Counted from the first letter of the stretch, positions 40,103-64,000 are shown. The stretch: 64,000 nt of DNA from Bacteroidales bacterium (GCA_035390825.1 DAOOUQ010000003.1:105268-169267), one strand, 5' to 3'. The notes: a model not told the origin generated them from the letters alone. Made by a program: numbers and translations.

Positions 40103-40678
40103 TTAGTTTATTTTACTAATGGCATAAGTTTCAATCTCCACCAGAAGAGTTTCCCAGCATAATCTTGCCTGAATCCCTGTACTGGCAGGCAGGGGATCAA
40201 GATTCATCCATCGGAAAAATGATGTGCGTATCTTATTGAATTCCTCGTAATCCCTTTCAATATCCCTTAGGTAATTGGTTGTCCTGATCACATCATGCCA
40301 TGTCATACCTTCGGCTGAAAGAAGATTTGTGATATTCCTGTAAGTCCTCCAGGTCTGAGCTTTGAAATCACCTATATGCTCTGCCTTCCCTTCTTCATTG
40401 ACACTAGCTGTACCTGAAATTAAAAGGATTTTATAACCTCCCAGTTCCAGACGAAGGGCTCTTGTAAATGATGATGGTTTTTTATAATCATAAGCTTCAT
40501 TTATTACCTGCGGTGCATGTACCGCGAATTTTTCAACAGGAGGTCTTTCTGTATGAACGGCTGGATAGTTGTAATCTTTTAACGTCAAATCTTCTTTGAG
40601 AATCCCCAGTTTAATCATTTCAGCTTTCTCACCATCCGTGAGTTTTGTCAGATCTATCAACAGTTGTTTGTTATCCAT
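40103..40678 (-). CDS. YjgF/RidA-fold protein with a chorismatase-like ISGTASV motif
   Basis: Core sequence KILLISGTASVNEEGKAEHIGDFKAQTWRTYRNITNLL. The track start at 40717 is TTG; the first ATG (MDNKQ...) is at 40678. Confidence 0.62.
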   Translation of the reverse strand: MDNKQLLIDLTKLTDGEKAEMIKLGILKEDLTLKDYNYPAVHTERPPVEKFAVHAPQVINEAYDYKKPSSFTRALRLELGGYKILLISGTASVNEEGKAEHIGDFKAQTWRTYRNITNLLSAEGMTWHDVIRTTNYLRDIERDYEEFNKIRTSFFRWMNLDPLPASTGIQARLCWETLLVEIETYAISKIN

Positions 40679-40713
40679 TTTAGTTATATGATTTTTCTTA
40701 TTAAACAATATTC

Positions 40714-41901: not shown

Positions 41902-41922
41902 GGGGTAATTGTTAATATGAAT

Positions 41923-43968: not shown

Positions 43969-43970
43969 AT

Positions 43971-45407: not shown

Positions 45408-45430
45408 ATTAAAAAGGTGAAACAGGGATT

Positions 45431-47092: not shown

Positions 47093-47220
47093 AACAGGTT
47101 TAATAGATTAAAGAGCCGGATATTCAAGAATGTTGAAAAATTCAATTAAAAACCAAAACCATCACATGTTGCCGCTTTTCTTTTTTTAGATTACCTGTCC
47201 AAAAGAGCAGCGGGAAACCA

Positions 47221-47252
47221 TTTATCTAACCTGTTTACCTTGAAATCTAACC
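47221..47252 (+). promoter_or_regulatory. Copy A of the recurring intergenic element CTAACCTGTTTACCTTGAAATCTAACC
   Basis: ACCTGTTTACCTTGAAAT (47229-47246) matches 58300-58317 at 16 of 18 positions. It shares CTAACCTGTTTA with 49826-49837 and CCTTGAAATC with 49672-49681. Confidence 0.4.
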
Positions 47253-47432
47253 TAAACAATTATAAAAATTAATTGTTAAATAAGTGTTAAAAGCAAATTA
47301 AAAGGCAATTAAAAATTAGGTTGGTTAAAAACACTGCAAGAAATTTGAATGGCTGTACCAGATTACAGGCGATGATAGCTGACAAAGCAATTTTGTCCGG
47401 GAATCTGGCAATCATGAAATACAGAACCCGGT

Positions 47433-48803
47433 TCATGCGGGAGAAGGAAGTGTTACAGTCACCGTGGTTCCTTTACCCGGTTTGGATTTGATTGTTATTT
47501 CACCATTGTGATTTTTTATAATCTGTCTTACAAGTGAAAGCCCTATACCTGTTCCCTGGATCAGTCTTGTATTTGAACCACGCTGAAATGGTTCAAAGAT
47601 TTTCTGGAGTTCATCCTCCGGTATCCCGATACCTTTATCCTTAAATACAAGTTCCATATTTTTTCCATTCGGGCCGAATCTTATATCAACTGTGTGATCA
47701 GCAGAGTATTTGCATGCATTTTCCATAATATTAATTATTGCCACCTTCAGAAGGCTGTCGTCACCGGCAATCATCATCTGTGAGGAATCCGTAAGAGAAT
47801 CGTTGATGGTTATATTTATGTGGTATGAAGGATTGAATTTCTTCAAATCATCACTTGCCTGCCAAACGACCTCATCAATGCTTACCTTCTTGTTATATCC
47901 TGAAGGCCCTTCAGCACTTGTCCTGGCGATAAGCAGCAATCTGTTTGAAAGGTTAATCAGCGATTTAATATCCTCCAGAACAGAATTGAGTGCATTTTTA
48001 TATTCCTCCGTGGTCCGGTCCTGCATCATCAGCACCTCTATCTGCCCGTGAACAGATGTGAGTGGTGTTCTGAGTTCATGCGAAGCATTTGATATGAAAT
48101 TTTTCTGCATGGCAAAGGATATTTCAAGTCTTTCGAGCATCCTGTTAAAGGTTTTTGCAAGACGTCCTATTTCATCTGCCCCGTTGCCTTCAGGAACTCT
48201 GAGGTTAAGGCTTGAGATGGAAATTTCATCAACCTTATTGACGACGTCTGATATAGGTTTAAGTGCCCTTCCCGAATAAAACCATCCTGCGACATAAAAC
48301 AAGACAAGACTAAGGAACCACACTATGAGCAGAATGAGTCCAAGCTTTTTAAGGTGTAACAGACCGTCGACATCCTGAGCTGCAGCCACTACAACAAAAG
48401 GAGTGTAATTTACAGTATACATCGTCCCGAGAACTTCATAGGCCCCCTGTTTATATCTGACGTTGATCTGTGACCTGATACGGTAAAGCAGATCGCCGGA
48501 TATCAGAATGTCGCCTGCAGGATCGGAGGTGTAAACAATATCATCCCTGCTGTTGAGTATTATTATCTTTTTGCGTGACAGGTTCGCGGGATTGTCATTT
48601 TCAATCATCCTTGCGAGGTTCTCATCAGGCTTGTAAGGGTTTAGAATCAGCCTGGCTGTGCTTCTCGACTGGCTTTTCAGGCGGTTGTAGAAATCCTCTT
48701 TCCTGAAATTTGAAGAGAAGTAATATATTGCCACCGAGGAGATAAGCATTATCAGGCCACCGAGGAGTATGAACTGAAGTGTCAGTCTGGTTCGTATCTG
48801 CAT
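47433..48803 (-). CDS. Sensor histidine kinase (two TM segments, HAMP, HisKA, HATPase_c)
   Basis: H-box SHELRTPLTS, N/G boxes (NIMENACKYS, GTGIGLSLV) and two N-terminal hydrophobic segments flanking a roughly 130-aa periplasmic loop. Confidence 0.9.
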   Translation of the reverse strand: MQIRTRLTLQFILLGGLIMLISSVAIYYFSSNFRKEDFYNRLKSQSRSTARLILNPYKPDENLARMIENDNPANLSRKKIIILNSRDDIVYTSDPAGDILISGDLLYRIRSQINVRYKQGAYEVLGTMYTVNYTPFVVVAAAQDVDGLLHLKKLGLILLIVWFLSLVLFYVAGWFYSGRALKPISDVVNKVDEISISSLNLRVPEGNGADEIGRLAKTFNRMLERLEISFAMQKNFISNASHELRTPLTSVHGQIEVLMMQDRTTEEYKNALNSVLEDIKSLINLSNRLLLIARTSAEGPSGYNKKVSIDEVVWQASDDLKKFNPSYHINITINDSLTDSSQMMIAGDDSLLKVAIINIMENACKYSADHTVDIRFGPNGKNMELVFKDKGIGIPEDELQKIFEPFQRGSNTRLIQGTGIGLSLVRQIIKNHNGEITIKSKPGKGTTVTVTLPSPA

Positions 48804-48814
48804 GCTACAAATGT

Positions 48815-48920
48815 ATTTCGGTATTCGGAATTGGGTACATTTCGGAGTTCGGATTTGAGATTTCGGATTTATCTGGTCGGAGGTATAATTCCGGAATCAC
48901 AATTCCGAAATCCGAAGTCT
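48815..48920. repeat. TTCGG(A/T)-rich direct and inverted repeat cluster in the RR-HK intercistronic spacer
   Basis: TTCGG occurs five times (48817, 48824, 48841, 48848, 48862) and CCGAA twice (48904, 48912). There is a palindrome TTCCGGAA (48888-48895). AGATTTCGGATTT (48858-48870) is complementary to AAATCCGAAGTCT (48908-48920) at 12 of 13 positions. Confidence 0.7.
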
Positions 48921-48923
48921 GAA

Positions 48924-49598
48924 TCAGTCTCCAAATATATATCCAAATCCTACTTTTGTCCTGATCAGCTTTTTATCAAATCCCTTGTCAATTTTTTTCC
49001 GCAGGAAGTTGACATAAACATCCACCACGTTTGTACTGAAATCAAAGCTTACATCCCAAACCTTTTCAGCGATGTCGTTTCTCGACAGTACCCTTCCGGG
49101 GTTCCTCATGAAATACTCGAGAAGAGAGAACTCCTTGGCAGTCAGGTTTATTACTGAGCCTCCCCTGCGTGCGGCTTTTTTATCGAGATCGAGTTCAAGG
49201 TCGCCGTAAGCAAGTCTTTTCAAAGTGTTATTCGAATGATCGGAGGTTTTCAGCAGGACCTTAACCCTTGCAAGCAGTTCCCTGAACTCAAAAGGTTTAA
49301 CAAGGTAATCATTGGCGCCTGCATCAAAACCTGCAAGCTTGTCGTCGGTTGTGCCCAGTGCAGTCAGCATTAGCACGGGGATGCCCGGATAAAGAGACTT
49401 GAACTTTTTGCAAAGTTCGAGACCGTTTGTACCTGGAATAATTATATCAAGTATAAAGAGATTGTATTTGTACTGTCGGGCTAGTTTGTCGGCAGAAATG
49501 CCATCGTAGGCTAAATCTGCCTCAAAGTGGCTTTCCTCAAGCCCTTTCTTGATAAAGGAGGCCACTTTCGGTTCATCTTCTACAATAAGGATTTTCAT
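48924..49598 (-). CDS. OmpR/PhoB-family response regulator (receiver + winged-helix DNA-binding domain)
   Basis: 224 aa with receiver motifs MKILIVEDE and LFILDIIIPG, and a Trans_reg_C tail (LTAKEFSLLEYFMRNPGRVLSRNDIAEKVW...IRTKVGFGY). Confidence 0.92.
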   Translation of the reverse strand: MKILIVEDEPKVASFIKKGLEESHFEADLAYDGISADKLARQYKYNLFILDIIIPGTNGLELCKKFKSLYPGIPVLMLTALGTTDDKLAGFDAGANDYLVKPFEFRELLARVKVLLKTSDHSNNTLKRLAYGDLELDLDKKAARRGGSVINLTAKEFSLLEYFMRNPGRVLSRNDIAEKVWDVSFDFSTNVVDVYVNFLRKKIDKGFDKKLIRTKVGFGYIFGD

Positions 49599-49768
49599 CT
49601 GGCACTAATATAACTTTGAACTGCATGTTGTAAGAAAATTGATTTATATCATTTGCTAAATATACATATATCCTTGAAATCCTCATAAACAAAGCCCGGG
49701 GAAGAAAGACAATATCACTTTTAACATAATTTTTCCCCGTATTTTCTTTAATGTTATTTTAATTTTAA

Positions 49769-49776
49769 TATCTTTG
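49769..49776 (+). promoter_or_regulatory. Candidate -7 box (TATCTTTG) for the SusC operon
   Basis: Matches the Bacteroides TAnnTTTG consensus 78 nt upstream of the SusC ATG. No clean -33 TTTG is seen. A second candidate, TAACTTTG, lies at 49611-49618. Confidence 0.3.
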
Positions 49777-49820
49777 AGATCAGATGAAGCAAGTTTTAGC
49801 TTGACTTTAATAATGACCAA

Positions 49821-49840
49821 TTTAACTAACCTGTTTAACC
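49821..49840 (+). promoter_or_regulatory. Copy B of the recurring element (TTTAACTAACCTGTTTAACC) in the SusC 5' leader
   Basis: ACCTGTTTAACC (49829-49840) is identical to 58300-58311 and ends 13 nt before the SusC ATG. Confidence 0.4.
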
Positions 49841-49853
49841 AAAACAAACGACT

Positions 49854-52800
49854 ATGCAAATTACTACAAAACTACGGCGTCTTACGCTGTTTTTGTTCAG
49901 TATGGTCATTTCCTCAGGCATAATTTTAGCACAGGAAAAGACCGTAACCGGGAAGGTCACCGCCGAAGGCGAGGGAGCAATCCCGGGTGTAAACGTTACA
50001 GTTCAGGGTACAACCATCGGTGCAATGACAGGTATGGACGGAACATATTCACTGAGGGTGCCGGGGCCGAACGCGGTTCTGGTCTTCTCTTCGGTAGGAT
50101 ATGTAACACAGGCCATAACCGTTGGTTCCCAAACCGTTATCAATGTCAGCCTGGTATCTGACGTTCAGGCACTCCAGGAAGTTGTCGTAACCGGTTATAC
50201 CCAGCAGAGAAGAAGGGACCTTACAGGTGCCATTGCAACAGTTGAACCTGCAAAACTGACCCAGGTTCCGACTCCAAACGTGAGTAATGCACTTCAGGGC
50301 CGTACTGCCGGTGTTACTGTTGTAGGCGACGGCCGGCCGGGAGAAACCTCAAAGGTCAGGATCAGGGGATTCAGCTCCTTCCAGAACAACGACCCTCTTT
50401 ATGTTGTTGACGGTGTGCCCACACAGGATATTTCCTCCCTGAACCCTGCAGACGTTGCTTCTGTATCCGTACTAAAGGATGCCGGTGCAGCTTCTGTTTA
50501 CGGATCAAGGGCATCGAACGGTGTTATAATCGTCACCACCAAAAAAGGCGGCACAGGAGCAAAAGTTACCTATAACATGTATTATGGAACTCAGGATCCG
50601 GGTAAAGGCCCCACCAACCTTCTGAATGCAAAAGAATATGCTGATCTGCAGTGGCTTGTTTATAAAAACGACGGCACCACTGAGGTTCATCCGATTTATG
50701 GCCCCTCAACAGCAGCAAGCCCCACGTTTCCCGAATGGGCAGCAGATACCGACTGGTACGATGCAATAACACATTTTGCACCAATTCAGAATCACGACCT
50801 TTCATTTTCAGCAGGAAACGAAAATTCGAAGTTTTTTGCCGGTCTTGGTGTAAACATGCAGGATGGGATTGTTATTTATACAGATGCCAAGAAGTTTACC
50901 GGGAGATTCAACTCTGAATTTACATTCCTTAACGGGAGAATCAAGGTAGGGGAGAACCTTTCTCTTGCATACCGCACTGGGCACGGTGTTTCCAACCTGA
51001 ACGAAGGAAGCCCGATCCAGGTGGCCTGTTATAGGGCCCAGCCGATTGTTCCGGTTGTGATGACAGTTGCCGTTCCTAACGGGGCCACTCATGCCTTTGT
51101 TCCCGGCGACTGGGGTGGAACTGGTATTGCTCCACGTCTTGGACAGGCCGGAAACGTAGTGGCCAACCAGACCCGGGGCAAGGATAACACAAACTGGAAC
51201 ATCCACCTTATTGGAAGCGCATTCATTGATATCAAATTGCTCCAGGGCCTGAACTTCAAATCGACTCTTGGCGGTACATTCGATAACGGAACATGGAACA
51301 GCTACTCATACAAGACATATGAAAATGCCGAGAATAACTCATCCAACTCATTCCAGGAAGAATCTTATTACGGGAATGACTGGGTATGGACGAACCAGCT
51401 GACTTTTGACAAAACCTTCGGCGACCATAAAATCCTGGCTGTTGCCGGATATGAGGCTGTTAAATATGGCATTGGCCGCGGTATCGGCGGAAGCAGGGCA
51501 TCATACTTCTCGGATGATGTTCTCTATCGAACCCTCAGCAACGGATCAAACATACTAAGTGCCTATGGCTGGCTCAATACACCGACCACCCTTGTATCAC
51601 AGTTCATAAGGACCGACTATTCGCTGATGGATAAATACATGATTAGCGCAACTGTACGTCGCGACGGATCTTCAAGGTTCGGTGCCGGCAACCGCTACGG
51701 GGTTTTCCCTTCCGCCTCTGTTGGCTGGAGGATCAAGAGCGAAAACTTCCTTGCCGATGTCACATGGCTTTCCGATCTCAAATTGAGGGCCTCCTGGGGT
51801 ACAATGGGTAACCAGCTTGCTGTATCTCCCATGAACCAGTTCTTTAACTATGGCGGAGATCCCGGATTATCATTCTATGACATCAACGGAACATTTACTT
51901 CCTCAGTACAGGGATTTGCTCCGACACGTATCGGTAATCCTGATGCAAAATGGGAAACCAACATTACAACAGATATTGGTTTTGAAGCTTCATTCCTTAA
52001 CAATAAGATAGGATTGAAATTCGACTGGTATTCAAAGAAAACAAAGGATCTCCTTTTTAATCCCGAAGTGCCTGGCACTGTAGGTGCTGCAGATGTACCC
52101 TATGTAAACGTTGCTTCAATGTCGAATACAGGTGTTGATATCGAAGTTTCGTACAGGAACCAGTGGGGCGATCTGGGATTCGACGGGAGCATTGTCGCAA
52201 CCACTTATAAGAACAATATTGATAAAATTGCCGAAGGGATCACCTTCTTTGATCCTTATAATGACGCTAATACCGCAAACAGGATCAATGGCGTTCCCGT
52301 ACGCAACATGGTTGGGCACCCGATGTCAGCATTCTTTGGCTATCATGTTCTTGGCTTGTTCCAGAGCCAGGCTGAGGTTGATGCTGCCCCCGAACAGTCG
52401 GGCGCTGAAGCAGGTTTCTTCCGCTTCGACGATACAAACGGTGACGGTAGTATAACTCCTGATGACAGGACATTCATTGGCAATCCCAACCCCAAATTCA
52501 CATACGGTGTTAACCTTGCCTTTACCTACAAAAACTTCGACCTGACAGCATTCCTTTACGGATCACAGGGTAACGATATCTTTAACTGGAACACATGGTG
52601 GGTCGATTTCTGGCCATCGTTCCAGGGACAGAAAAGCAAAAATGCCCTCTACAACAGCTGGACTCCGCAAAGAACAAATGCAACCACCCCGAAAGCATCC
52701 AACAAGTCTAATTTCTCGACAAATAACGAAATCAACGACTATTACATTGAAGATGGATCGTTCCTCCGTCTGAAAAACCTTCAGATCGGATATACAATTC

Positions 52801-52991
52801 CTGAAAGTGTTACGAGCAAAATTAATATCGGATCAATCAGGGTCTATTTGCAGGGAGTTAACCTGTTTACAATTACAAAATACTCAGGGCTTGATCCCGA
52901 ACTTGGCGGCTGGGACACAACCTTCGGTATGGATGCCGGAAACTATCCTCTGGTTAAACAGTACCTTGTAGGTTTAAATGTGAATTTTTAA
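49854..52991 (+). CDS. SusC/RagA-family TonB-linked outer-membrane protein
   Basis: 1045 aa with a CarboxypepD_reg N-domain (VTGKVTAEGEGAIPGVNVTVQGT), a plug (VVVTGYTQQRRRD) and the C-terminus VGLNVNF. Confidence 0.9.
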   Translation: MQITTKLRRLTLFLFSMVISSGIILAQEKTVTGKVTAEGEGAIPGVNVTVQGTTIGAMTGMDGTYSLRVPGPNAVLVFSSVGYVTQAITVGSQTVINVSLVSDVQALQEVVVTGYTQQRRRDLTGAIATVEPAKLTQVPTPNVSNALQGRTAGVTVVGDGRPGETSKVRIRGFSSFQNNDPLYVVDGVPTQDISSLNPADVASVSVLKDAGAASVYGSRASNGVIIVTTKKGGTGAKVTYNMYYGTQDPGKGPTNLLNAKEYADLQWLVYKNDGTTEVHPIYGPSTAASPTFPEWAADTDWYDAITHFAPIQNHDLSFSAGNENSKFFAGLGVNMQDGIVIYTDAKKFTGRFNSEFTFLNGRIKVGENLSLAYRTGHGVSNLNEGSPIQVACYRAQPIVPVVMTVAVPNGATHAFVPGDWGGTGIAPRLGQAGNVVANQTRGKDNTNWNIHLIGSAFIDIKLLQGLNFKSTLGGTFDNGTWNSYSYKTYENAENNSSNSFQEESYYGNDWVWTNQLTFDKTFGDHKILAVAGYEAVKYGIGRGIGGSRASYFSDDVLYRTLSNGSNILSAYGWLNTPTTLVSQFIRTDYSLMDKYMISATVRRDGSSRFGAGNRYGVFPSASVGWRIKSENFLADVTWLSDLKLRASWGTMGNQLAVSPMNQFFNYGGDPGLSFYDINGTFTSSVQGFAPTRIGNPDAKWETNITTDIGFEASFLNNKIGLKFDWYSKKTKDLLFNPEVPGTVGAADVPYVNVASMSNTGVDIEVSYRNQWGDLGFDGSIVATTYKNNIDKIAEGITFFDPYNDANTANRINGVPVRNMVGHPMSAFFGYHVLGLFQSQAEVDAAPEQSGAEAGFFRFDDTNGDGSITPDDRTFIGNPNPKFTYGVNLAFTYKNFDLTAFLYGSQGNDIFNWNTWWVDFWPSFQGQKSKNALYNSWTPQRTNATTPKASNKSNFSTNNEINDYYIEDGSFLRLKNLQIGYTIPESVTSKINIGSIRVYLQGVNLFTITKYSGLDPELGGWDTTFGMDAGNYPLVKQYLVGLNVNF

Positions 52992-53010
52992 CAGTATAAT
53001 ATGAAATAAT

Positions 53011-54894
53011 ATGAAAAATAGATCTTTAATATTTTTCTTAATTCTTGCCGGGATCCTATTGATTGGTTCCTGTAAGGAAGACTTTCTGACAGTAAAACCA
53101 GCAGGTTCACTCGACGAAAACATACTTGCCGATGATCCGGGTATAGAAGCGATGCTGATTGGCTGTTATGCATGCCTTGATGGTCAGGGCGGACCCGGGG
53201 GCTGGGGTTCAGCAACCTCTAACTGGGTTTATGGATCCATTAGAGGAATGGAAGCCAACAAAGGTTCAGATGCCGGTGACCAGCCTTTTATCAACCCGAT
53301 ACAGACATTCAGTGAAACGTCAACAAATGACTATCTGAACGTGAAATGGAGAACTGTATATGATGCTATAACAAGATGCAATAAAACAATCATTATCATT
53401 AACAAAGCTCTGGAAAAAGGTACGATATCACAGTCTGATGCAGATCTTTGGACACAGCAGGCACGGGTCCTGAGGGGATGGTATCATTTTGATGCCTGGA
53501 GAATGTGGGGCGGCAAGATCCCGTATGTTGATGAAAATACTGATCCCTATACAGTTACAAATACAGCTGATGTCAGGGCACAGATAATTGCCGATCTTAC
53601 TGAAGGCACAAAGCTCCCTTTAAACATGGGAGCCATAGGAAGGTTCAACAAAACTGTAAGCCAGATCCTTCTCGCAAAAGCTGAGATGGAAATGAACAAG
53701 GATTACGCTAAGGCCCTCGTGCTGCTGAACGATGCAAAAAACACGGGTAAAAAGCCCAATGGAGCTGATATAGGCCTTGCTCCAACTTATGGTGAGATAT
53801 TTGATATTGCCAACCGCAACGGTATCGAATGCATCTATACTGTACAGTATTCGGTAAACGACAACTCGGGCGGAACCAACGGCGGAAACGGTGAGGTCCT
53901 TAACTTCCCGTATAACGGCAATGCCCCGGGTACCTGCTGCGGATTCTTCAACCCGACACAGGATTTCGTAAATTCATTCAGAACCAATGCTCAGGGGTTG
54001 CCTTATCTTGATAATTATAATAGTTATCCAGTGTTAAATGATCAGGGATGTCCCACAGAAAACAATTGGGACGCCGGCACTACCTATTCAAAGAAGGATG
54101 TTGTTATCGTCACCGATCCATCAGAAGCACCTAATCGTCAGGTAAAAGCATACGTATCCTTGACTGAAGGGAATATAGGACATCCGCCACTTACAAGTCC
54201 GACTTACTGGGCTGTTCAGTGGCAGGAAGACCCCGATCCATTGGATCCTCGTCTCGACTGGTCAGTGGGAAGAAGGGGAATCCCTTACTGGGATTGGGGA
54301 ATTCATACAGGTATGAACTGGATACGAGACCAGACCTATTCTGGTCCTTACAGTCCGAAAAAACAGGTTTACAAAAAATCACAGACAGGCACCTATACCG
54401 AAGTAGGAAGCTGGACATCAGGCTATACGGCAAATGGATACCGTATGATACGTTATGCTGACCTCCTTCTGTTGCTTGCTGAATGTGAAATTGAAGCCGG
54501 AAGCCTCGAAAACGCAAGGGCCCTGATAAACCAGGTTCGAACCAGGGCTTCAAATCCTGACGGATTCGTAAAGGATGGTAATGTCCCTGCTGCAAACTAT
54601 GTTGTAAGTCCGTATCCTTTAACAGGAGCACCTTTCGATACAAAAGAAAATGCCCGCAAGGCTCTCTACATGGAAAGGAAACTTGAACTCGGTCAGGAGG
54701 GTCATAGATGGTTCGACCTTAACAGATGGGGAATAACAGTGGCTGAACTTTCAAAGGTCCTTGCCTATGAGAAGAGCATGCCATGGGGTGATAAATTGTA
54801 CCAGGGTGCTGCATTGGGCCCGGAAGATGTTTCCTTCCCGATCCCGCAGCGCCAGATCGACCTGAGTGAAGGTAATATCGTGCAGAACCGATAG
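53011..54894 (+). CDS. SusD/RagB-family nutrient-binding lipoprotein
   Basis: 627 aa with a lipobox (LLIGSCKE) and a SusD C-terminal block (MERKLELGQEGHRWFDLNRWG). Confidence 0.9.
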   Translation: MKNRSLIFFLILAGILLIGSCKEDFLTVKPAGSLDENILADDPGIEAMLIGCYACLDGQGGPGGWGSATSNWVYGSIRGMEANKGSDAGDQPFINPIQTFSETSTNDYLNVKWRTVYDAITRCNKTIIIINKALEKGTISQSDADLWTQQARVLRGWYHFDAWRMWGGKIPYVDENTDPYTVTNTADVRAQIIADLTEGTKLPLNMGAIGRFNKTVSQILLAKAEMEMNKDYAKALVLLNDAKNTGKKPNGADIGLAPTYGEIFDIANRNGIECIYTVQYSVNDNSGGTNGGNGEVLNFPYNGNAPGTCCGFFNPTQDFVNSFRTNAQGLPYLDNYNSYPVLNDQGCPTENNWDAGTTYSKKDVVIVTDPSEAPNRQVKAYVSLTEGNIGHPPLTSPTYWAVQWQEDPDPLDPRLDWSVGRRGIPYWDWGIHTGMNWIRDQTYSGPYSPKKQVYKKSQTGTYTEVGSWTSGYTANGYRMIRYADLLLLLAECEIEAGSLENARALINQVRTRASNPDGFVKDGNVPAANYVVSPYPLTGAPFDTKENARKALYMERKLELGQEGHRWFDLNRWGITVAELSKVLAYEKSMPWGDKLYQGAALGPEDVSFPIPQRQIDLSEGNIVQNR

Positions 54895-54921
54895 TACGTT
54901 CCTGTAATTGTAATTTAGAGT

Positions 54922-54954
54922 TAAGGACATGCCCTGGCATGTCCTTATTTTTTT
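54922..54954 (+). terminator. Rho-independent terminator/attenuator after SusD
   Basis: 11-bp stem TAAGGACATGC / GCATGTCCTTA with the loop CCTG, followed by a run of seven T. The next gene starts only 26 nt downstream. Confidence 0.7.
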
Positions 54955-54979
54955 ATCTTAGCATAAATAAACCACCGGG

Positions 54980-57900: not shown

Positions 57901-58285
57901 ATCAAGTTATATCATTTGGAATGATAATGGCAGGTTCAGGTGGGAAAGACTGCCGTGGCAGGCACAGCTTTCTCCCTTAACAGGAATGATAATCCGTGAT
58001 CTCAACGGCGACTCACTTCCTGACATAATTGCGATTGGCAACGACTTTTCATGGGGTCTGGCCACAGGATATCTTGACGGCAACAAAGGACTGATATTAA
58101 TAAATGAGACAGAAAAAAAGGCTAAAGGCGGAAATGCCTCATTTAAGGCATTGGGCCCTTCAGAGAGCGGATTTTTTGTAAACGGGATGGCAGGATCTTT
58201 GCTCTGGATGGAAGGTGAAAATCCATTGCTTGTTGCAGGCATAAACAGATCGAAGGCACTGGTATTTAAATATAATACAAAATAG
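54980..58285 (+). CDS. Giant VCBS/FG-GAP + ASPIC/UnbV lipoprotein (CRTAC1-like), paralog 1
   Basis: 1101 aa with a lipobox (LLISCS) and many DxDxDG loops (DLNNDGLTDLVF, DVNNDGWLDIY, DFDNDGDRDLL, DLDNDGDLDYV, DYDNDGDNDII). There is a central ASPIC block (NFLKIRLIG...DPVIHFGLA...LRITWPG). Confidence 0.85.
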   Translation: MNRLFIILCASLLISCSDPSKFVLMDPGHTGIDFNNTVIESDSLNLMNYEYLFNGAGVGTGDLNNDGLTDLVFAGNQVSSRVYLNTGDFRFRDITANLKGLANDQWYSGVAMADVNNDGWLDIYLTSTGGKTREKRKNRLWINGGCRKGQDPVFTELSEESGIACDDQSVAAAFFDYDLDGFPDLYVLNNEITYPAVSTYRQKISDGTAPNNDRLYHNNGDGTFTDVTLEAGIRNEGFGMGLAVSDLNKDGYPDLYISNDLLANDVLYINQGDGSFRNEIEKYISYQSRTSKGNDIADINGDGNPDICTLDMMPSDYQKKKQTINGFNYSFYEADKEFGYEHQYLRNMLHLHNGFLNGRLLPFSESGQMMGMSETDWSWSPLFADFDNDGDRDLLVTTGFPRDIRDKDWTKIKASAAGSLTTEKGLSEMAPSLKIPNVAFENRGDSIFVPANDWFPDIPSFSYGAAFADLDNDGDLDYVINNINDKAFVYRNVTVEKSKKPSNFLKIRLIGPDTNPLALGAKAELWCGGKIQYYEHFLTRGYASSVDPVIHFGLADIQIADSLRITWPGDSYFSVLKNITANQTIEIRFENSVPWKKPQERNRNSGLLFCVNDSILDYSHQQDDFNDFRQNQKIIPHKFSQIGPCLAKGDIDGDGNEDIVTGATLSQPSMVFLGRGDKFQRTEFEGFTAMKQVPESNIAIVDYDNDGDNDIIVMAGGYENQSENEYKHFIYEKRNSSFISHPLNAPAFPASVVRPCDFDNDGDIDLFIGSRVKKGMFPYANHSWILLNKNGRYSADPDFRLNLGMVTDAVWTDYNRDGWTDLLVARDWNSIVLLKNENGKRFVPQVIPEIESKHGLWYSISAADLDGDGDEDYIAGNLGENHRFPLNDLHPMKLYAIDLEPDGNLDPLITAFYNDQDGKPAEYPLNYLDELWSQSPFMEGRCKDYSSFSMLDFDELIPEAIRKRLEFSLYVNSTSSYIIWNDNGRFRWERLPWQAQLSPLTGMIIRDLNGDSLPDIIAIGNDFSWGLATGYLDGNKGLILINETEKKAKGGNASFKALGPSESGFFVNGMAGSLLWMEGENPLLVAGINRSKALVFKYNTK

Positions 58286-58299
58286 CTGAAGGGGCAGGC

Positions 58300-58317
58300 A
58301 CCTGTTTAACCTGAAAT
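58300..58317 (+). promoter_or_regulatory. Copy C of the recurring element (ACCTGTTTAACCTGAAAT) in the FISUMP gene leader
   Basis: Matches 47229-47246 at 16 of 18 positions, and its first 12 nt are identical to 49829-49840. It ends 23 nt before the ATG at 58341. Confidence 0.4.
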
Positions 58318-58340
58318 GGTTATATTGGTAATTTATCGGT

Positions 58341-59039
58341 ATGAAAATGAAGATCAAAAGAGCAAGCATGAAAATGATAAAAGCCGTGATATTAACAATA
58401 TTGCTATTGTCACAGCGACCGGCATTTTTACATTCACAGACTGCGGTGAAGGATGTTGACGGCAATACCTATTTGTCAATAGTTATCGGCAAACAGACCT
58501 GGATGGCAGAAAACCTTAAAACTACCCGTTTGAACGACGGCACCCCGATCAAGCTCGTCAGCGATGAAAAAACATGGTCGTCTGCGAACTACCCAGCATA
58601 TTGCTTTTATGAAAATGAACCAAAGAACAAAGAAGTCTACGGGATATTATATAACTGGTTCACTGTTGACACAAAAAAACTATGCCCGAAAGGCTGGCAC
58701 GTTCCAAGCGATAATGAATGGAAAGAGCTGACGGATTTCCTGGGCGATATTATCACCGCCGGCGACAAGTTAAAGGAAGCGGGCACAACACACTGGAAGA
58801 ACTATTTCAGCCAGGCCACAAATGAGTTTGATTTTACCGCACTTCCGGCAGGGATGAGGTATAATACAGGCGTTTTTCCTGATTTCGGAAACGACTATGC
58901 TGTGTGGTGGTCCTCAACAAGGGCTAATATCACACTGGCCTGGAATCGCGGATTGCACAACAGCACTAGCAGAATATTCCGGGGGTGCGATGAAATCCAA
59001 AGCGGATTCTCTGTCCGTTGTATTATGGATAAGAAGTAA
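58341..59039 (+). CDS. Fibrobacter succinogenes major paralogous (FISUMP, TIGR02145-type) domain protein, exported
   Basis: 232 aa with DVDGNTYLSIVIGKQTWMAENLKTT, GWHVPSDNEWKEL, AVWWSST and FSVRCI, the hallmark blocks of the FISUMP domain. Confidence 0.8.
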   Translation: MKMKIKRASMKMIKAVILTILLLSQRPAFLHSQTAVKDVDGNTYLSIVIGKQTWMAENLKTTRLNDGTPIKLVSDEKTWSSANYPAYCFYENEPKNKEVYGILYNWFTVDTKKLCPKGWHVPSDNEWKELTDFLGDIITAGDKLKEAGTTHWKNYFSQATNEFDFTALPAGMRYNTGVFPDFGNDYAVWWSSTRANITLAWNRGLHNSTSRIFRGCDEIQSGFSVRCIMDKK

Positions 59040-59065
59040 TATATTAGCATTCCTAATCTTTATCC

Positions 59066-62000
59066 ATGAAGTACTTTTTTTACGGATTATTCTCCCTGAT
59101 CCTGTTATCATGTTCAAAACAGACAAGGTTTGAATATCTCGATCCGGCATCAACAGGTGTGGATTTCAGCAATACAATAACCGAAACTGACAGTTTCAAT
59201 GTAATGACATATGAATACATTTACAATGGGGCTGGCCTTGGTATAGGAGATCTGAATAATGACGGGCTGGCCGACATTGTATTTGCGGGTAACCAGGTTT
59301 CTCCGCGAGCGTATCTTAATCTTGGCAATTTCAAATTCAAGGATATTACTTCAAACTTTAAAGGGCTCACCAACAATCAATGGTTCAGCGGAGTGACGAT
59401 CGTTGATATTAATAACGACAGGCTTGCTGATGTTTACATTACTGCTACAAAAGATTCTCTGCCCGGGAAATGTCTTAACCGTCTCTGGGTAAATACGGGC
59501 ATAAATGAAAAAGGAGAACCGTTTTTCGAGGAAAAGGCTGATGAATACGGCATAGCTTATGATGGCGAATCAGTCCAGTCAGCTTTTTTGGATTATGACC
59601 TCGACGGGGATATTGATCTTTACATTATGAACAATACCCTGAATTCAAGAATGGATGCAGCCTATCGGCCAAAAATATCGGATGGCAGCGCCATGAACAA
59701 TGACAAACTCTTCAGGAACAACGGTGATGGCACATTTACAGATGTCACAGTTCAGGCAGGAATAGTGTATGAAGGATTCGGCCTTGGAGTGGCTGTCGGA
59801 GATGTAAATAAAGACGGATACCCCGATATTTATATATCAAATGACTTTATCTCGAATGACCTTTTGTATATAAATCAGCGCGACGGGACCTTTAAAAATG
59901 AAATAGGAAAATATCTTTCCTATCAGACCAAATCCTCAATGGGTGATGATATGGCCGATGTAAACAACGATGGCTGTCCTGATATACTGACTCTCGACAT
60001 GCTTCCTGAATATTACTATAAAAAGAGGCAAACCATCGCCGGATTCAGTTACATGTTCTATGGCCTGGATGCCAAATTTAATTTTGAACATCAGTATCTC
60101 AGGAATATGCTTCACCTTCATAACGGTTTCATAAACGGTGAGATGCTTCCATACAGTGAGGTCGGCCAGATGATGGGAAACATTTACGACACGGAATGGA
60201 GCTGGTCACCTTTATTTGCTGATTATGACAATGACGGGGATAAAGACCTGATAATAGCCAATGGATATCCAAAGGATCTTACCGACAAAGACTGGACAAG
60301 ATATAAAGTCACAGTATATGGTTACGTTGCAGACGGGGATCATGTGATAAAAATGGCACCTTCTATCAAGGTAAACAATATGGCATTTGAAAATACCGAC
60401 CTGTTTCATTTTAAAAGAAGGTATGACTGGCTTCCCGATATCCCTTCATATTCGTACGGTGCATCATTTGCCGACCTTGACAACGACGGCGATCTTGATT
60501 ATGTGTCAAACAATATAAATGACAAGGCATTTGTACTTAAAAATACAACTGTTGAACGATCAGGTAAAAAGGCCGGATGGATAAGGATTTTACTTAAAGG
60601 TAAAGAAGGAAATACAATGGCGCTTGGTGCAAAGGCCGAAATATGGTGCAATGGCAGGTACCAGTTCAATGAACATTTTCTGAGCCGCGGCTATGCATCC
60701 TCTGTCGATCCGATTGTGCATTTCGGGATCGGGGATGCCAAAATCATTGATTCCATCAGGATCACATGGCCTTCTTCAGGAAATATCTCACTTTTGAGGA
60801 ATATCAAAAGGAACCAGCTGATAGAAATTGATGAAGCCCAATCGGTAAAGCCGGGTAAAGCTTTTACCACGTTGAGAAATGCTGACCTTCTTTTTACAAG
60901 ATGTGACAGCATCATTCCATACAGACATGAACAGGCCGATTTCCCTGATTTTTATCTGGAACAGAATATCATTCCGCATAAATTTTCACAGATAGGCCCG
61001 GTGATGGCAAAAGGCGACCTGAACAATGACGGGAAGGAAGACATTGTCATCGGAGCCACAAACCTTCTCCCAACAACTGTTTTTTTGAGGAAGGGCAACG
61101 GTTTTATCAGTGATTCCATACCCGGTCTTACCGGCCCGAAGAAATTTTCAGAATCGGCAATTGCAATTGTTGATATCGACAATGATGGCGACAATGACGT
61201 GATTGCACTGGCAGGCGGTTATGAGAACAAGGATGAAAGCAGCTATCGGCATTATCTCTACGAAAATCGGAATGGAGCGTTCACCAGAAAAGAGCTTCCT
61301 TTGCCTCCATTTATTGGCTCAGTAATAAAACCGGCTGATTTTGACCATGATGGCGATGTGGACCTGTTTATAGGTTCACGGGTGAAAAAAGGCATGTTCC
61401 CCCATTCCGATCCTTCCTGGCTTCTAATCAATGAGAATGGCAATCTTTCTGCAAAAGATCCGCTGAAATTTGATCTTGGTATGGTAACAGACGCAGTCTG
61501 GAGCGATTATGATAAGGATGGATGGGAAGACCTGCTCGTTACAAGGGAATGGAATTCAATTGCCGTGCTTAAAAATACAGGTAGAAAAGAACTGGTAAAG
61601 ACTGATTTAAAGAGCTTTGACAATTACCACGGATTCTGGTTCTCAATAATAGCAGGAGATTTTGACAATGACGGTGATGACGACTACATCGTTGGAAATC
61701 TCGGGGAAAACAACAGATTCACGATAAGTGACAAATATCCGGTGAGCCTTTACTCAATTGATCTCGATCTTGACGGGGTCATTGATCCTGTATCAACCGC
61801 TTATTGGAAAGACAAGGATGGCAAAATGACTGAGTATCCGATCAATTATCTTGATGAGCTTATTGAACAATCAAATCTTTTCCAGAAACTCTTCAGCGAT
61901 TACAAGTCGTTCAGCTATACCAGCTTCAGACAGATGATTGATGAAGAAATCATGAAACGTCTCGAGTTTAAACTATATGTAAATACACCGTCAAGTTATG

Positions 62001-62359
62001 TCATCTGGAATGATAAAGGTAATATGAAATGGGAAAAGCTTCCACTTCAGATGCAGGTGTCACCTGTTAAGAAGATGATTGTAAAAGACCTCAACGGAGA
62101 TAATTATCCTGACATCATCGCGGGGGGTAATGATTATACCTATGATATTTCCACCGGATACTATGATGCACTGAAAGGCATTGTTCTTCTTTCAGGCGGC
62201 AACCGGTCATTCACAGCTCTCACTCCGTCGCAAAGCGGGCTTTTATTGAATGGCATGGTAGAATCGCTCCTTTACATTGACGGCGATACGCCACTGGTGA
62301 TAGGAGGAATTAACAGGAGAAATGCGGTCGTTTATTCAGTGCGTACGAACTCACCCTGA
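59066..62359 (+). CDS. Giant VCBS/FG-GAP + ASPIC/UnbV lipoprotein (CRTAC1-like), paralog 2
   Basis: 1097 aa with a lipobox (LLSCS). It is co-linear with 54980-58285 along its full length, with well over half the residues identical by eye in the aligned N-terminal 350 aa. Confidence 0.85.
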   Translation: MKYFFYGLFSLILLSCSKQTRFEYLDPASTGVDFSNTITETDSFNVMTYEYIYNGAGLGIGDLNNDGLADIVFAGNQVSPRAYLNLGNFKFKDITSNFKGLTNNQWFSGVTIVDINNDRLADVYITATKDSLPGKCLNRLWVNTGINEKGEPFFEEKADEYGIAYDGESVQSAFLDYDLDGDIDLYIMNNTLNSRMDAAYRPKISDGSAMNNDKLFRNNGDGTFTDVTVQAGIVYEGFGLGVAVGDVNKDGYPDIYISNDFISNDLLYINQRDGTFKNEIGKYLSYQTKSSMGDDMADVNNDGCPDILTLDMLPEYYYKKRQTIAGFSYMFYGLDAKFNFEHQYLRNMLHLHNGFINGEMLPYSEVGQMMGNIYDTEWSWSPLFADYDNDGDKDLIIANGYPKDLTDKDWTRYKVTVYGYVADGDHVIKMAPSIKVNNMAFENTDLFHFKRRYDWLPDIPSYSYGASFADLDNDGDLDYVSNNINDKAFVLKNTTVERSGKKAGWIRILLKGKEGNTMALGAKAEIWCNGRYQFNEHFLSRGYASSVDPIVHFGIGDAKIIDSIRITWPSSGNISLLRNIKRNQLIEIDEAQSVKPGKAFTTLRNADLLFTRCDSIIPYRHEQADFPDFYLEQNIIPHKFSQIGPVMAKGDLNNDGKEDIVIGATNLLPTTVFLRKGNGFISDSIPGLTGPKKFSESAIAIVDIDNDGDNDVIALAGGYENKDESSYRHYLYENRNGAFTRKELPLPPFIGSVIKPADFDHDGDVDLFIGSRVKKGMFPHSDPSWLLINENGNLSAKDPLKFDLGMVTDAVWSDYDKDGWEDLLVTREWNSIAVLKNTGRKELVKTDLKSFDNYHGFWFSIIAGDFDNDGDDDYIVGNLGENNRFTISDKYPVSLYSIDLDLDGVIDPVSTAYWKDKDGKMTEYPINYLDELIEQSNLFQKLFSDYKSFSYTSFRQMIDEEIMKRLEFKLYVNTPSSYVIWNDKGNMKWEKLPLQMQVSPVKKMIVKDLNGDNYPDIIAGGNDYTYDISTGYYDALKGIVLLSGGNRSFTALTPSQSGLLLNGMVESLLYIDGDTPLVIGGINRRNAVVYSVRTNSP

Positions 62360-62865
62360 TGGAACTGAAATTTAACGACTTCCCAGCACGAGGGACAATT
62401 AAAAAGGGGAGTGTCGCGGGTATGTTCAGGAACGTCGGCGGTTATTATCCTGTTTTCGACTGAGATTATCCGCATATCTGATTCGATTGATCCCGCGAGC
62501 TTGTATTTCTTTCCCGATCCCAGAAGAACAAGCTGTTCCGATACTGTCTGATACTGACCCTGAAAGTTGTAAAGAGTTATGATTGCATCAGCTTCGTTAT
62601 CATCATCTATCAGACCCGTACGGATTGTTGACGGATCAAGGATAAGACGCCTGTTTTCATCGCTGAACTCAATTACTCCGTTTCCCAGAGCTTTTTTTTC
62701 AGGATTCTTTAGCTGTCCGGAGATATAGTCTTCTGCAACTTTAATTATCCTGTCTTTTGTTTTCATGTCCAGGCTGCCGGATGATCCTTCTGAGCCGGAC
62801 TTACAGGTTAAAAGAAAGAATGCCAGTGCTCCTGAAAAAAGAAATAAAGGAATGTTTCTGATCAT
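62332..62865 (-). CDS. Hypothetical lipoprotein
   Basis: 177 aa with a lipobox (LLTCKSG) and no recognisable domain. Its 3' end overlaps the convergent VCBS gene by 28 nt. Confidence 0.5.
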   Translation of the reverse strand: MIRNIPLFLFSGALAFFLLTCKSGSEGSSGSLDMKTKDRIIKVAEDYISGQLKNPEKKALGNGVIEFSDENRRLILDPSTIRTGLIDDDNEADAIITLYNFQGQYQTVSEQLVLLGSGKKYKLAGSIESDMRIISVENRIITADVPEHTRDTPLFNCPSCWEVVKFQFHQGEFVRTE

Positions 62866-63113
62866 GACTTTTTAGATGAAAACCAAATATATGATAAAAT
62901 TTCAATCATCCCTTTTTATTTCTGTATCTCCTGCTCTTTAAGAAGGATTTCAGACCTTTAAAGGATTTTGGCGCAAATATGTGCACACGGTGTAGCCTTC
63001 AGAGGGCTTGGGGGGCAATCCGGGCTAAATATGAAAGGTGAGAAAACAATATTCATTACAATAACCCGAAAAAATCCTAACTTTATCGCTCACAAAACCA
63101 ACTGGAAAGTCGA

Positions 63114-64000
63114 ATGATGATGGGGAAAAGATACCTGATGAATACGGTTTTACTGGCAGCCATTCTGTTCTTCTGGGGATGCAGGAAATTTGACGGCAAC
63201 GCGCCTTTGAATGATCGGATACCTATGATAAGTCCTGATTATATTAATGTTACAATACCTCCGAATATTGCACCCATGAATTTCAGGATCACCGAAGAAG
63301 GGAAGTCTTTTATGGTGACGGCAGAGTCGGACGATTTTAAGATTGAAGTAAAGTCTTCTGATGGAACAATAAGGTTTCCGGAAAAGAAATGGAAGAAACT
63401 GATCTCTGGCAGGAGCAATGGTAAAATTACGTTCCGTGTTTATGTAAGTAATGGAAAGGAAGCAATACAATACAGGGAGTTCTTCATGTATGTAACTGAA
63501 GAACCAATTGATCCTTATCTTGCTTACAGGTTAATAAATCCGGGATACTACAGCTGGTCGAACATTAAGATAGTGCAACGTTCTATCGAAAGTTTCGAGG
63601 AAGAACCGCTTTTTGATAACCAGATAATGGATAAAAATTGTGCCAACTGCCATTCATTCAACAGGAACAGTTCGGATCGCTTCCTGCTGCACATAAGGGG
63701 ATCAAAGGGAGGGACATATTTTATTGAAGACGGCAGGATAACCCGTACAGATCCTAAAATTGAATCGATGCCCGGAGGAGCGACCTATCCTTCATGGCAT
63801 CCCGACGGGAGGTTTGTAGCATTTTCTTCAAACCAGGTGCGCCAGAGCTTCTATTCTGTCCCTGACAGGAATGTTGAAGTTTTTGACCTTGTTTCTTCTC
63901 TTGTTGTCTACGACAGGAAGCTTAACGAAGTAATTAATGTTACCGACAGGGATACAACGAAATACCAGCAGACGTTCCCATCCTGGTCACCTGACGGCAG
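63114..64000 (+). CDS. CxxCH-containing lipoprotein with PD40-like repeats (5' part; continues beyond the window end)
   Basis: Absent from the ORF track because it has no stop within the window. The reading frame is open from the ATG at 63114 to the window end: MMMGKRYLMNTVLLAAILFFWGCRKF... (lipobox). It contains NCANCHSF (heme-binding CxxCH), then SWHPDGRFVAFSS and FPSWSPDG (PD40-like). Confidence 0.72.
   Translation, partial: MMMGKRYLMNTVLLAAILFFWGCRKFDGNAPLNDRIPMISPDYINVTIPPNIAPMNFRITEEGKSFMVTAESDDFKIEVKSSDGTIRFPEKKWKKLISGRSNGKITFRVYVSNGKEAIQYREFFMYVTEEPIDPYLAYRLINPGYYSWSNIKIVQRSIESFEEEPLFDNQIMDKNCANCHSFNRNSSDRFLLHIRGSKGGTYFIEDGRITRTDPKIESMPGGATYPSWHPDGRFVAFSSNQVRQSFYSVPDRNVEVFDLVSSLVVYDRKLNEVINVTDRDTTKYQQTFPSWSPDG

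Follow-up and report, generated by a model that had tools for sequence, protein, structure and literature searches.

A SusC/SusD locus with double-propeller lipoproteins that is linked to, and probably co-regulated with, a hydrazine synthase-like haem operon in a Bacteroidales bacterium

The locus described here lies at positions 47433-64000 of a 64,000-nucleotide stretch of DNA from a Bacteroidales bacterium (GCA_035390825.1, DAOOUQ010000003.1:105268-169267), the whole of which is called the window, and it encodes a SusC/SusD pair (SusCD), a two-component system, two lipoproteins of ~1100 amino acids (aa) designated VCBS1 and VCBS2, and a FISUMP-domain protein. The DNA belongs to a metagenome-assembled genome of an uncultured member of the Bacteroidales that is probably Rikenellaceae-like. 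The reading that we put forward, and on which we place about half of our confidence, is that SusCD and its propeller-type binding lipoproteins form an import module that feeds a periplasmic haem-enzyme pathway, both being governed by one two-component system. The haem enzymes would be those of the adjoining operon, which encodes CRTAC1-like proteins and homologs of hydrazine synthase (HZS). By homology, the locus encodes a SusCD transporter and a classical two-component system together with two CRTAC1-like double-propeller lipoproteins and a FISUMP protein; no carbohydrate-active enzyme (CAZyme) is recognizable in it. The SusCD-VCBS unit and the HZS-like operon are probably co-regulated, as suggested by conserved sequence elements in both control regions; moreover, because their adjacency survives several rearrangements and ~40% sequence divergence, a functional coupling between them is well supported.

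Gene organization of the locus and of the linked operon

The gene map was built from a listing of open reading frames (ORFs) together with Pfam and NCBIfam profile searches, and every gene listed in the initial annotation of this DNA was recovered with the same coordinates. The features are as follows.

47433-48803, minus strand: sensor histidine kinase (HK), with HAMP, HisKA and HATPase_c domains (Pfam)
48924-49598, minus strand: OmpR/PhoB-family response regulator (RR), with a receiver domain and Trans_reg_C (Pfam)
49599-49853: divergent RR/SusC control region (sequence)
49854-52991, plus strand: SusC (TIGR04056, TIGR04057, CarboxypepD_reg, Plug)
53011-54894, plus strand: SusD (PF07980, PF14322)
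54922-54954, plus strand: hairpin and T-run between susD and VCBS1 (sequence)
54980-58285, plus strand: VCBS1, 1101 aa (FG-GAP_3, FG-GAP and UnbV_ASPIC, Pfam)
58341-59039, plus strand: FISUMP-domain protein, 232 aa (PF09603, E = 1.9e-44; TIGR02145)
59066-62359, plus strand: VCBS2, 1097 aa, paralog of VCBS1 (FG-GAP_3, FG-GAP, UnbV_ASPIC)
62332-62865, minus strand: 177-aa lipoprotein (ORF), convergent with VCBS2
63114-64000, plus strand: CxxCH lipoprotein, first 295 aa of 520, continuing past the window end
47093-47432, minus strand: control region of the CRTAC1/HZS-like operon (sequence repeats)
31466-47092, minus strand: linked CRTAC1/HZS-like operon (Pfam, NCBIfam, CxxCH counts), given below in transcription order
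45431-47092, minus strand: CRTAC1-like lipoprotein, 553 aa
43971-45407, minus strand: HZS-alpha-like monohaem lipoprotein, 478 aa, one CxxCH
41923-43968, minus strand: HZS-beta-gamma-like trihaem protein, 681 aa, with a propeller, a peroxidase/MauG-like dihaem module and one extra CxxCH (three in total)
then: a 395-aa protein, a RidA-like protein, Peripla_BP_6, a DAHP-synthase-I-family protein, Peripla_BP_6, a TPR-FG-GAP-ASPIC protein of 1198 aa and an ASPIC protein of 564 aa

Pfam and NCBIfam profiles detected no glycoside hydrolase (GH), polysaccharide lyase (PL), carbohydrate esterase or carbohydrate-binding module (CBM) family in 47433-64000, and the closest CAZyme inside the window is a GH106 protein at 15009-18428. 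The absence of CAZymes from the locus, which had been claimed from the outset, holds by these profiles and also by fold, in two AlphaFold/Foldseek searches with VCBS1. Two other details of the initial annotation stood only in part. The regulator had been described as shared back-to-back with the CRTAC1/haem operon; RR and HK are present, but both lie upstream of that operon and are co-oriented with it, and it is RR and SusC that form the divergent pair. Likewise, the CxxCH lipoprotein placed across a divergent promoter does begin at 63114, but the gene from which it diverges is the 177-aa lipoprotein gene, which had been missed.

Linkage of the SusCD-VCBS unit with the HZS-like operon

Neighbourhoods were read around homologs of the HZS-alpha-like protein (~58-60% identity; P0141, P0153, P0193) and of VCBS1 (61-65%; P0015, P0031, P0010), and all of those read contain the same head-to-head super-cluster, with VCBS-FISUMP-VCBS <- SusD <- SusC on one side and RR -> HK -> CRTAC1 -> HZS-alpha -> HZS-beta-gamma -> ... 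-> TPR-VCBS on the other. The carriers are L005, L085, L086, L087, L088 and the P0141/P0015 contig; overall, the ~35-kb pairing, which is a feature of many uncultured Bacteroidales, occurs in at least seven other assemblies and in one rearranged variant. In that variant (L039), one SusCD pair lies directly upstream of the CRTAC1-HZS-alpha genes, in the same direction and downstream of the same HK/RR, and genes for a ~1100-aa VCBS protein, a DAHP-synthase, the 177-aa lipoprotein and the CxxCH protein are nearby. HK orthologs keep their position in L005, L085, L086, L088 and the P0141 contig. On the P0015/P0141 contig (JGI 3300075153), susD and the first VCBS gene are separated by an inserted transposase gene of the IS200/IS605 Y1 type.

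Scanning metagenomes with an alignment of HZS-alpha yielded ~35 long loci, 28 of them with informative upstream DNA. SusCD and/or a ~1100-aa VCBS gene is adjacent in 15 of these 28, in three different arrangements: six are divergent with a two-component system and nine are without one, some of the latter having the VCBS gene co-oriented into the CRTAC1 gene. Judged from gene order, the coupling of SusCD-VCBS with the HZS-like operon is frequent but not obligatory.

The operon itself does not encode a true hydrazine synthase, because its NCBIfam scores are far under the equivalog cutoffs (118 vs. 800 and 236 vs. 1250 bits). It corresponds feature by feature, in gene order and in CxxCH counts (1 and 3), to the clade III HZS-homolog clusters, in which an FG-GAP/CRTAC1 gene stands upstream of a short alpha homolog with one haem motif, the fused beta-gamma homolog carries one additional haem motif, and genes for two ABC-type binding proteins follow downstream (PMC12758564, Genome Biol Evol 2025). 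According to the same study, the key catalytic residues of true HZS are not conserved in clades I-III; SusC, SusD, TonB and two-component systems have zero mentions in its text. Three of the operon proteins are of the CRTAC1 type and two are LivJ-type binding proteins, and lipoboxes are present on the CRTAC1-like and HZS-alpha-like proteins. The same gene order was found in L085, L086, the P0141 contig and the ~35 metagenome loci.

Sequence elements common to the two control regions

Phased TTTTAA-type direct repeats are conserved at both promoters. In the RR/SusC region, the direct repeat TTTAATGTTATTTTAATTT (49747-49765), of the form TTTAAT-N5-TTTAAT, lies just upstream of a Bacteroidetes -7-like box, TATCTTTG at 49769-49776 (TAnnTTTG-type). 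In the operon promoter region, four TTTTAA(C/T) repeats with 11-bp phasing occupy 47275-47314, and the direct repeat AGGTTAGAT occurs twice; no other copy of the phased TTTTAA triple repeat exists in the window (shuffle mean 0.05). Both the TTTTAA repeats and the TTTAATGTTATTTTAATTT repeat are kept in L005, L085 and L086. OmpR/PhoB-family regulators typically bind direct repeats one helical turn apart, and we infer that these repeats are putative sites of the window's own RR. In addition, the 11-mer AAACAGGTTAG has two copies in the 64-kb window (0.03 expected), both on the minus strand: one at 49826-49836, 18 nt upstream of the SusC start codon, and the other at 47226-47236, in the leader of the CRTAC1/HZS-like operon. 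Both copies are kept in L005 and L085 and one in L086, and the SusC-side element is kept in L001-L005 and L085. An earlier guess at a shared motif, TTTAACYAACCT, was marginal (three matches vs. 0.64 expected, allowing one mismatch) and was replaced by the exact 11-mer. Thus, the proposal that the two units form one regulon of ~35 kb gains backing from two sides, namely the conserved super-synteny with the CRTAC1/HZS-like operon and the cis-elements common to both promoter regions.

Between susD and VCBS1, a perfect, GC-rich 11-bp hairpin followed by a T7 run (54922-54954) is likely to be an attenuator or a terminator. Its sequence is kept in L005 and L088, and a different hairpin with a T-run takes its place in L087, a replacement that points to attenuation between susCD and the VCBS genes; as an attenuator, it would likely set the ratio of susCD to accessory-gene transcripts. 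Apart from this susD-distal hairpin, scans for sigma-70 and terminator consensus sequences remained at background level, and Rfam detected no cis-regulatory RNA in 46900-64000.

Distribution of the SusCD-VCBS module

A protein search returned at least 7,900 full-length relatives of the ~1100-aa VCBS protein, and when one genome per species was scanned, 408 matches were confirmed, from which 80 loci were kept; the carriers include Maribacter, Arenibacter, Flavobacterium, Gelidibacter, Chitinophaga, Mucilaginibacter, Terrimonas, Saprospiraceae, Cyclobacteriaceae and many Bacteroidales. The ORFs of these loci were classed by phmmer and clustering, and 70 of the 80 had enough upstream DNA to be informative. 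SusC/SusD stands beside the VCBS gene in 56 of these 70 Bacteroidota loci, arranged as follows.

45 of 70 loci: SusD directly upstream of the VCBS gene, same strand
4 of 70 loci: SusD within two genes of the VCBS gene
7 of 70 loci: divergent SusC beside the VCBS gene
14 of 70 loci: neither a SusD nor a SusC arrangement

Across all 80 loci, VCBS copies of more than 900 aa number one in 49 loci, two in 19, three in 10 and four in 2. The exact order SusCD-VCBS-FISUMP-VCBS was found in four further assemblies (60-80% identity). The concern that such synteny might be unique to one genome is removed by these results: on the evidence of gene neighbourhoods, the SusCD-VCBS core is a phylum-wide module and not a peculiarity of the source genome.

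The two propeller lipoproteins

VCBS1 and VCBS2 are 57% identical over their full length, carry lipoboxes (LISC/LLSC), and contain 12 calcium loops of the form DxDxDGxxD each. In VCBS1, an N-terminal FG-GAP propeller with seven calcium loops is followed by an ASPIC/UnbV domain at 518-585 and by a C-terminal FG-GAP propeller with five (PF13517, E = 1e-73; PF07593, E = 6e-17 at 518-585). This succession of an FG-GAP calcium propeller and UnbV_ASPIC is that of the CRTAC1/ASPIC-UnbV family, and CRTAC1 was the sole match when the PDB was searched with the VCBS1 sequence. An AlphaFold (AF2) model of VCBS1, computed with 80 homologs as input, consists of a propeller, the ASPIC beta-sandwich and a second propeller, with a predicted local distance difference test score (pLDDT) of 82.6 and a predicted template modelling score (pTM) of 0.83; the C-terminal half modelled alone reached a pLDDT of 88.6 and a pTM of 0.91. 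In Foldseek searches of the PDB, the top match of the full-length model was murine CRTAC1 (9etn; E = 3.6e-21, template modelling (TM) score 0.72), and DDB1 and other multi-propeller matches were set aside as generic (TM < 0.25). The C-terminal half matched CRTAC1 (TM 0.54-0.59), then Bap1 of V. cholerae (E = 1.5e-9), ITFG2, the EPTP domain of LGI1 and integrin alpha propellers; aldos-2-ulose dehydratase, a propeller enzyme, appeared at a similar generic level (TM 0.53).

The initial annotation had held that a catalytic CAZyme domain within the VCBS proteins would overturn its reading. None was found by profiles or in the VCBS1 folds: GH and PL structures are absent from the Foldseek top 50 of both the full-length model and the C-terminal half, and there is no match to a CAZyme propeller with conserved catalytic residues, such as that of the PL11 type. 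As in SusE/F-type proteins, a lipoprotein gene directly follows susD, but the tandem Ig-like or CBM-like beta-sandwiches of that type are replaced in the model by two propellers and one ASPIC beta-sandwich. In a family alignment of 119 members from 80 genomes (median identity 36%), 116 aligned positions are at least 95% conserved, nearly all of them Asp, Asn and Gly of the calcium loops; five Trp are among the remaining invariant positions, as are a few Gln, Asn, Ser and Thr, and no conserved set of His, Glu, Lys or Arg and no acid-base set is present in the 119 sequences. This pattern is more in keeping with a ligand-binding scaffold than with an enzyme. VCBS1 and VCBS2 are maintained as separate orthologous lines, which shows that the duplication took place before the carrier lineages diverged; the two are inferred to be non-redundant for this reason.

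SusC, SusD and the two-component system

SusC (1045 aa) scores 858 bits against TIGR04056 (cutoff 368) and carries the TIGR04057 signature; Pfam detects CarboxypepD_reg and Plug in it, but no STN signalling domain. SusD (627 aa; PF07980, E = 1.2e-38) has a lipobox and a predicted mature N-terminus of C-K-E-D-F, and its gene lies 19 nt from susC on the same strand. The closest solved SusC is the levan SusC BT1763 (5T3R, 518 bits; RagA, 296 bits), and the closest solved SusD is BT1762 (126 bits). In an ENA assembly of the same organism (L002:4875-8012), SusC is called as two ORFs of 685 and 325 aa, either through a frameshift or assembly error or because the copy has been pseudogenized in that population.

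Of the features by which a polysaccharide utilization locus (PUL) is recognized, the locus has an adjacent susC/susD pair and a sensor/regulator beside susC, namely the divergent OmpR-type RR and a periplasm-sensing HK with two transmembrane segments around a periplasmic loop of ~120 aa (by hydropathy), although this regulator class is atypical for PULs; it lacks even one CAZyme. Classical two-component control of a SusCD pair is unusual, yet it is by itself no sign of a non-glycan substrate.

FISUMP protein and small lipoproteins

The FISUMP protein has a type-I signal peptide and no lipobox, and a sequence search gave no solved relative. Its gene lies between two VCBS genes in L005, the P0015 contig, L087 and L088. 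Loci of other Bacteroidales and Chitinophagaceae encode, between their first and second VCBS genes, a conserved ~207-aa protein (c8; L026, L031, L034, L037, L051, L068, L072, L074, L077 and L082; e.g., L072:9456-10079), which has no Pfam match and was rejected as a FISUMP relative, being unrelated. It seems that the module includes a small partner protein whose type varies.

The 177-aa lipoprotein gene overlaps VCBS2 by 28 nt, and its homologs keep their position in the rearranged L039 and in the super-cluster wherever the flank was read (L005, L087, L088). The C-terminal CPSCW of the protein is a CxxC and not a CxxCH motif, which rules it out as a haem protein, and no Pfam, NCBIfam or PHROG match was obtained. 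On the full contig, the CxxCH lipoprotein is 520 aa long, with an FFWGC lipobox, one NCANCH motif and PD40 beta-propeller repeats; it is kept beside the locus in L005, L039, L088 and the P0015 contig. It has no informative relative in the PDB, and the idea that it is an HZS-alpha-like paralog was dropped, since no relationship is detectable.

Neighbouring genes

Past the right end of the window (L001:19697-23031), the CxxCH lipoprotein gene is followed by genes for a DUF6057 protein (591 aa), kept at that place in L005, L088 and the P0015 contig, and for a protein of 457 aa with weak BNR_4/BNR_2 matches, which is the sole nearby candidate for a sialidase-like fold. On the other side, the long minus-strand cluster ends with two genes (29089-31354, minus strand), which encode a 441-aa protein with a weak match to Asn_synthase (adenylating) and a 342-aa protein without a family. 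A second SusC/SusD pair (24285-29047, plus strand) runs convergently toward the distal end of the HZS-like operon, a TonB-dependent receptor without SusD (21073-23502, plus strand) adjoins a PnuC-type transporter of nicotinamide mononucleotide, and further along are the GH106 rhamnosidase (15009-18428, minus strand) and an M61 peptidase. The genome therefore has ordinary CAZyme genes nearby.

Proposed mechanism and alternative explanations

In the mechanism that we propose, the propeller lipoproteins, probably acting as a VCBS1/VCBS2 pair, would be calcium-dependent binding components of the SusCD complex that capture a ligand too large for porins and deliver it to the SusD lid and the SusC barrel. 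SusC/SusD, by homology, would carry the ligand across the outer membrane on TonB energy. In the periplasm, as the conserved linkage suggests, the ligand would meet the single-propeller CRTAC1-like lipoprotein, the c-type haem complex of HZS-alpha-like and HZS-beta-gamma-like proteins with its peroxidase/MauG-type dihaem module, and the two LivJ-type binding proteins. The periplasm-sensing HK and the OmpR-type RR may turn on both units via the direct-repeat sites that they have in common.

Several observations weigh against this mechanism. The motifs common to both promoters are AT-rich or short; HK/RR is absent from L087, where SusC is still divergent from the CRTAC1-HZS operon; and 13 of the 28 metagenome HZS-like operons have neither a SusCD nor a VCBS neighbour. 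The conserved hairpin and T-run after susD mean that the VCBS genes may be separately transcribed, and the transposase insertion on the P0015/P0141 contig likewise suggests that they have a promoter of their own, unless that copy is disrupted. Only one acidic residue, a weak resemblance to an export signal, follows the lipid-bearing Cys in VCBS1 and none is nearby in VCBS2, so the two proteins could face the periplasm. Furthermore, sequence conservation in the family is far higher than is usual for SusE/F-type binding proteins, so that there is scope for an enzymatic role.

The alternative that deserves most attention, although we consider it somewhat unlikely, is that the locus is a standard PUL for a glycan, its enzymes being encoded at another site, with the VCBS proteins as surface glycan-binding proteins (SGBPs) for a conventional oligo- or polysaccharide and the HZS-like adjacency functionally meaningless. 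Related modules do adjoin sugar genes. Chitinophaga loci have an extracytoplasmic function (ECF) sigma factor and a FecR anti-sigma factor, often with GH43 directly upstream of susC; a Flavobacterium-type locus reads GH65, SusC, SusD, VCBS, VCBS, PAP2, c6, MFS, GH100-like, PfkB, GH13-like, MFS and trehalase; and several Bacteroidales loci have a GFO/IDH/MocA oxidoreductase between 3-keto-disaccharide hydrolases. The levan pair is the closest solved SusC/SusD, several Trp of the propellers are invariant family-wide, as is typical of sugar-binding sites, and the 13 HZS-like operons without a SusCD neighbour point the same way. On the other hand, there is no CAZyme within ~29 kb on one side and only the weak BNR_4 match among the downstream genes seen; the VCBS proteins of the window's HZS-linked clade are only 33-42% identical to those of the other loci compared, so the sugar-gene contexts may not transfer to this clade; and the HZS-like adjacency persists through three rearrangements and ~40% sequence divergence, with conserved elements common to both promoter regions. 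These sugar-gene contexts, the levan-like pair and the invariant Trp also mean that a claim of the initial annotation, that the imported substrate is probably not a conventional glycan, does not follow. The ligand may be a glycan or glycoconjugate, or a non-glycan polymer, and the latter is not favoured over the former.

It is also conceivable, though distinctly unlikely in our view, that the ~1100-aa VCBS/ASPIC proteins are cryptic surface enzymes acting on the substrate, either as a new family of propeller lyases or hydrolases or as calcium-dependent partners of an oxidoreductase type; the locus would then not be enzyme-free. Their conservation is unusual for a PUL accessory protein (33-41% full-length identity across classes, in addition to the 116 nearly invariant positions), the HZS-linked subclade has invariant polar motifs (EHQYLRNMLHLHNG, IIPHKFSQIGP and GSRVKKGMFP), propeller enzymes such as aldos-2-ulose dehydratase are among the fold matches, and CRTAC1-type genes are core members of HZS-homolog clusters (PMC12758564). 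A vanadium haloperoxidase-like PAP2 gene, moreover, comes next in 30 of the 80 loci. Against this stand the lack of any Pfam or NCBIfam catalytic domain, the absence of GH and PL structures from the Foldseek top 50 of either model, and the fact that the family as a whole does not share the polar motifs of the subclade, retaining instead the calcium loops with Trp, Gln and Asn. The fold likeness to Bap1 and to integrin alpha propellers, and the adhesion-related labels of VCBS domains in Pfam and in the literature, could instead indicate adhesins or matrix proteins of the V. cholerae Bap1/RbmC or integrin type that serve attachment and are merely co-transcribed with SusCD. We regard this as highly improbable, considering that the slot right after susD, which is the slot of SusCD accessory lipoproteins, is kept in 45 of 70 loci, that the proteins have a lipoprotein anchor and not a type IX secretion or secreted-matrix signal, and that tandem paralogs (up to four) occur beside transporters and catabolic genes.

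Comparison with relatives and with known systems

Beyond the proposed import module feeding a haem-enzyme pathway, relatives of the module are repeatedly associated with a peroxide-using redox enzyme. The PAP2 gene that follows the VCBS genes in the 30 loci encodes a vanadium haloperoxidase-like protein of ~445 aa, and the Flavobacterium copy (L047, 13270-14628) is a clear homolog of the Zobellia galactanivorans vanadium iodoperoxidase 4CIT/4USZ (E = 4.9e-176). Carriers of the PAP2 gene include Arenibacter; Arenibacter strain C-21 accumulates iodine in a manner dependent on glucose, O2 and Ca2+ (PMC5064120). That the partners are haem-peroxidase-like in anaerobes and vanadium haloperoxidases in aerobes is a suggestive parallel, though a speculative one. 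It is tempting to go further and suppose that the CRTAC1-like double-propeller lipoproteins mark a hitherto unrecognized, phylum-wide class of SusCD systems feeding peroxide-type redox enzymes and not glycoside hydrolases, namely an HZS-like c-haem complex in anaerobic Bacteroidales and a vanadium haloperoxidase in aerobic Flavobacteriia and Chitinophagia, as an oxidative or halogenating route for the acquisition or transformation of a non-glycan substrate (phenolic or humic-type polymers, organo-halogen or iodine species); we consider this broader idea unlikely to be right as it stands. The haloperoxidase loci of Flavobacterium, Arenibacter, Chitinophaga and Mucilaginibacter have the same SusC-SusD-VCBS core (~1100 aa, one to four copies, 33-41% identity), whereas they have the PAP2 gene after the VCBS genes and neither an HZS-like operon nor a FISUMP gene.

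The levan utilisome of B. thetaiotaomicron (BT1760-1763) resembles the window locus in its tandem susC-susD, in the lipoprotein genes after susD and in the adjacent sensor/regulator. By contrast, the window locus has no GH, lyase, esterase or CBM; where PULs have Ig-like or CBM-like SGBPs together with a surface GH, it has 1100-aa double FG-GAP propellers; and where PULs use hybrid two-component systems, SusR or ECF/anti-sigma pairs, it has a classical HK with an OmpR-type RR. RagAB of Porphyromonas gingivalis, a SusCD-family pair importing a non-glycan substrate, illustrates that CAZyme-free SusCD loci can be functional, but the window SusC is nearer to glycan SusCs than to RagA (518 vs. 296 bits) and RagAB has no propeller lipoproteins. 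CRTAC1 (9etn) and the bacterial ASPIC/UnbV family ("enediyne biosynthesis protein E4") share with VCBS1 and VCBS2 the calcium-binding FG-GAP propeller followed by UnbV_ASPIC; the window proteins differ in being lipoproteins, in having a second full propeller after ASPIC and in lacking an EGF-like domain. The searchable open-access literature contains no assigned function for a bacterial ASPIC/UnbV (CRTAC1-like) member.

CAZyme-free SusCD loci, non-glycan SusCD systems such as RagAB, CRTAC1-like proteins and the HZS-homolog cluster are already known, the window operon being like the clade III clusters (PMC12758564) and the importer link being new here. The searchable literature holds no account of an association of SusCD with CRTAC1-like (ASPIC, FG-GAP, VCBS, UnbV) proteins or of SusD with a haloperoxidase, and we found unreported there the phylum-wide SusCD/double-propeller module, its conserved coupling with the HZS-like operon, with cis-elements common to both, and the alternative coupling with a vanadium haloperoxidase.

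Significance

Bacteroidota take up nutrients mainly through SusCD systems, which are nearly always interpreted via their CAZymes. Here, a very large family of 1100-aa CRTAC1-like lipoproteins, with at least 7,900 close full-length relatives, fills the SusCD accessory slot phylum-wide, and the case cautions that gene content alone is a poor basis for predicting the substrates of "CAZyme-free PULs." The same core module is present in cultivable relatives, namely Chitinophaga, Flavobacterium, Maribacter and Arenibacter. The role of the HZS-like operon outside anammox bacteria was raised as a question as recently as 2025 (PMC12758564), and the linkage described here supplies a candidate importer, sensor and operator sites for it. 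If the reading in which these importers feed peroxide-type redox enzymes were true, it would provide the first physiological context for hydrazine synthase homologs outside anammox bacteria.

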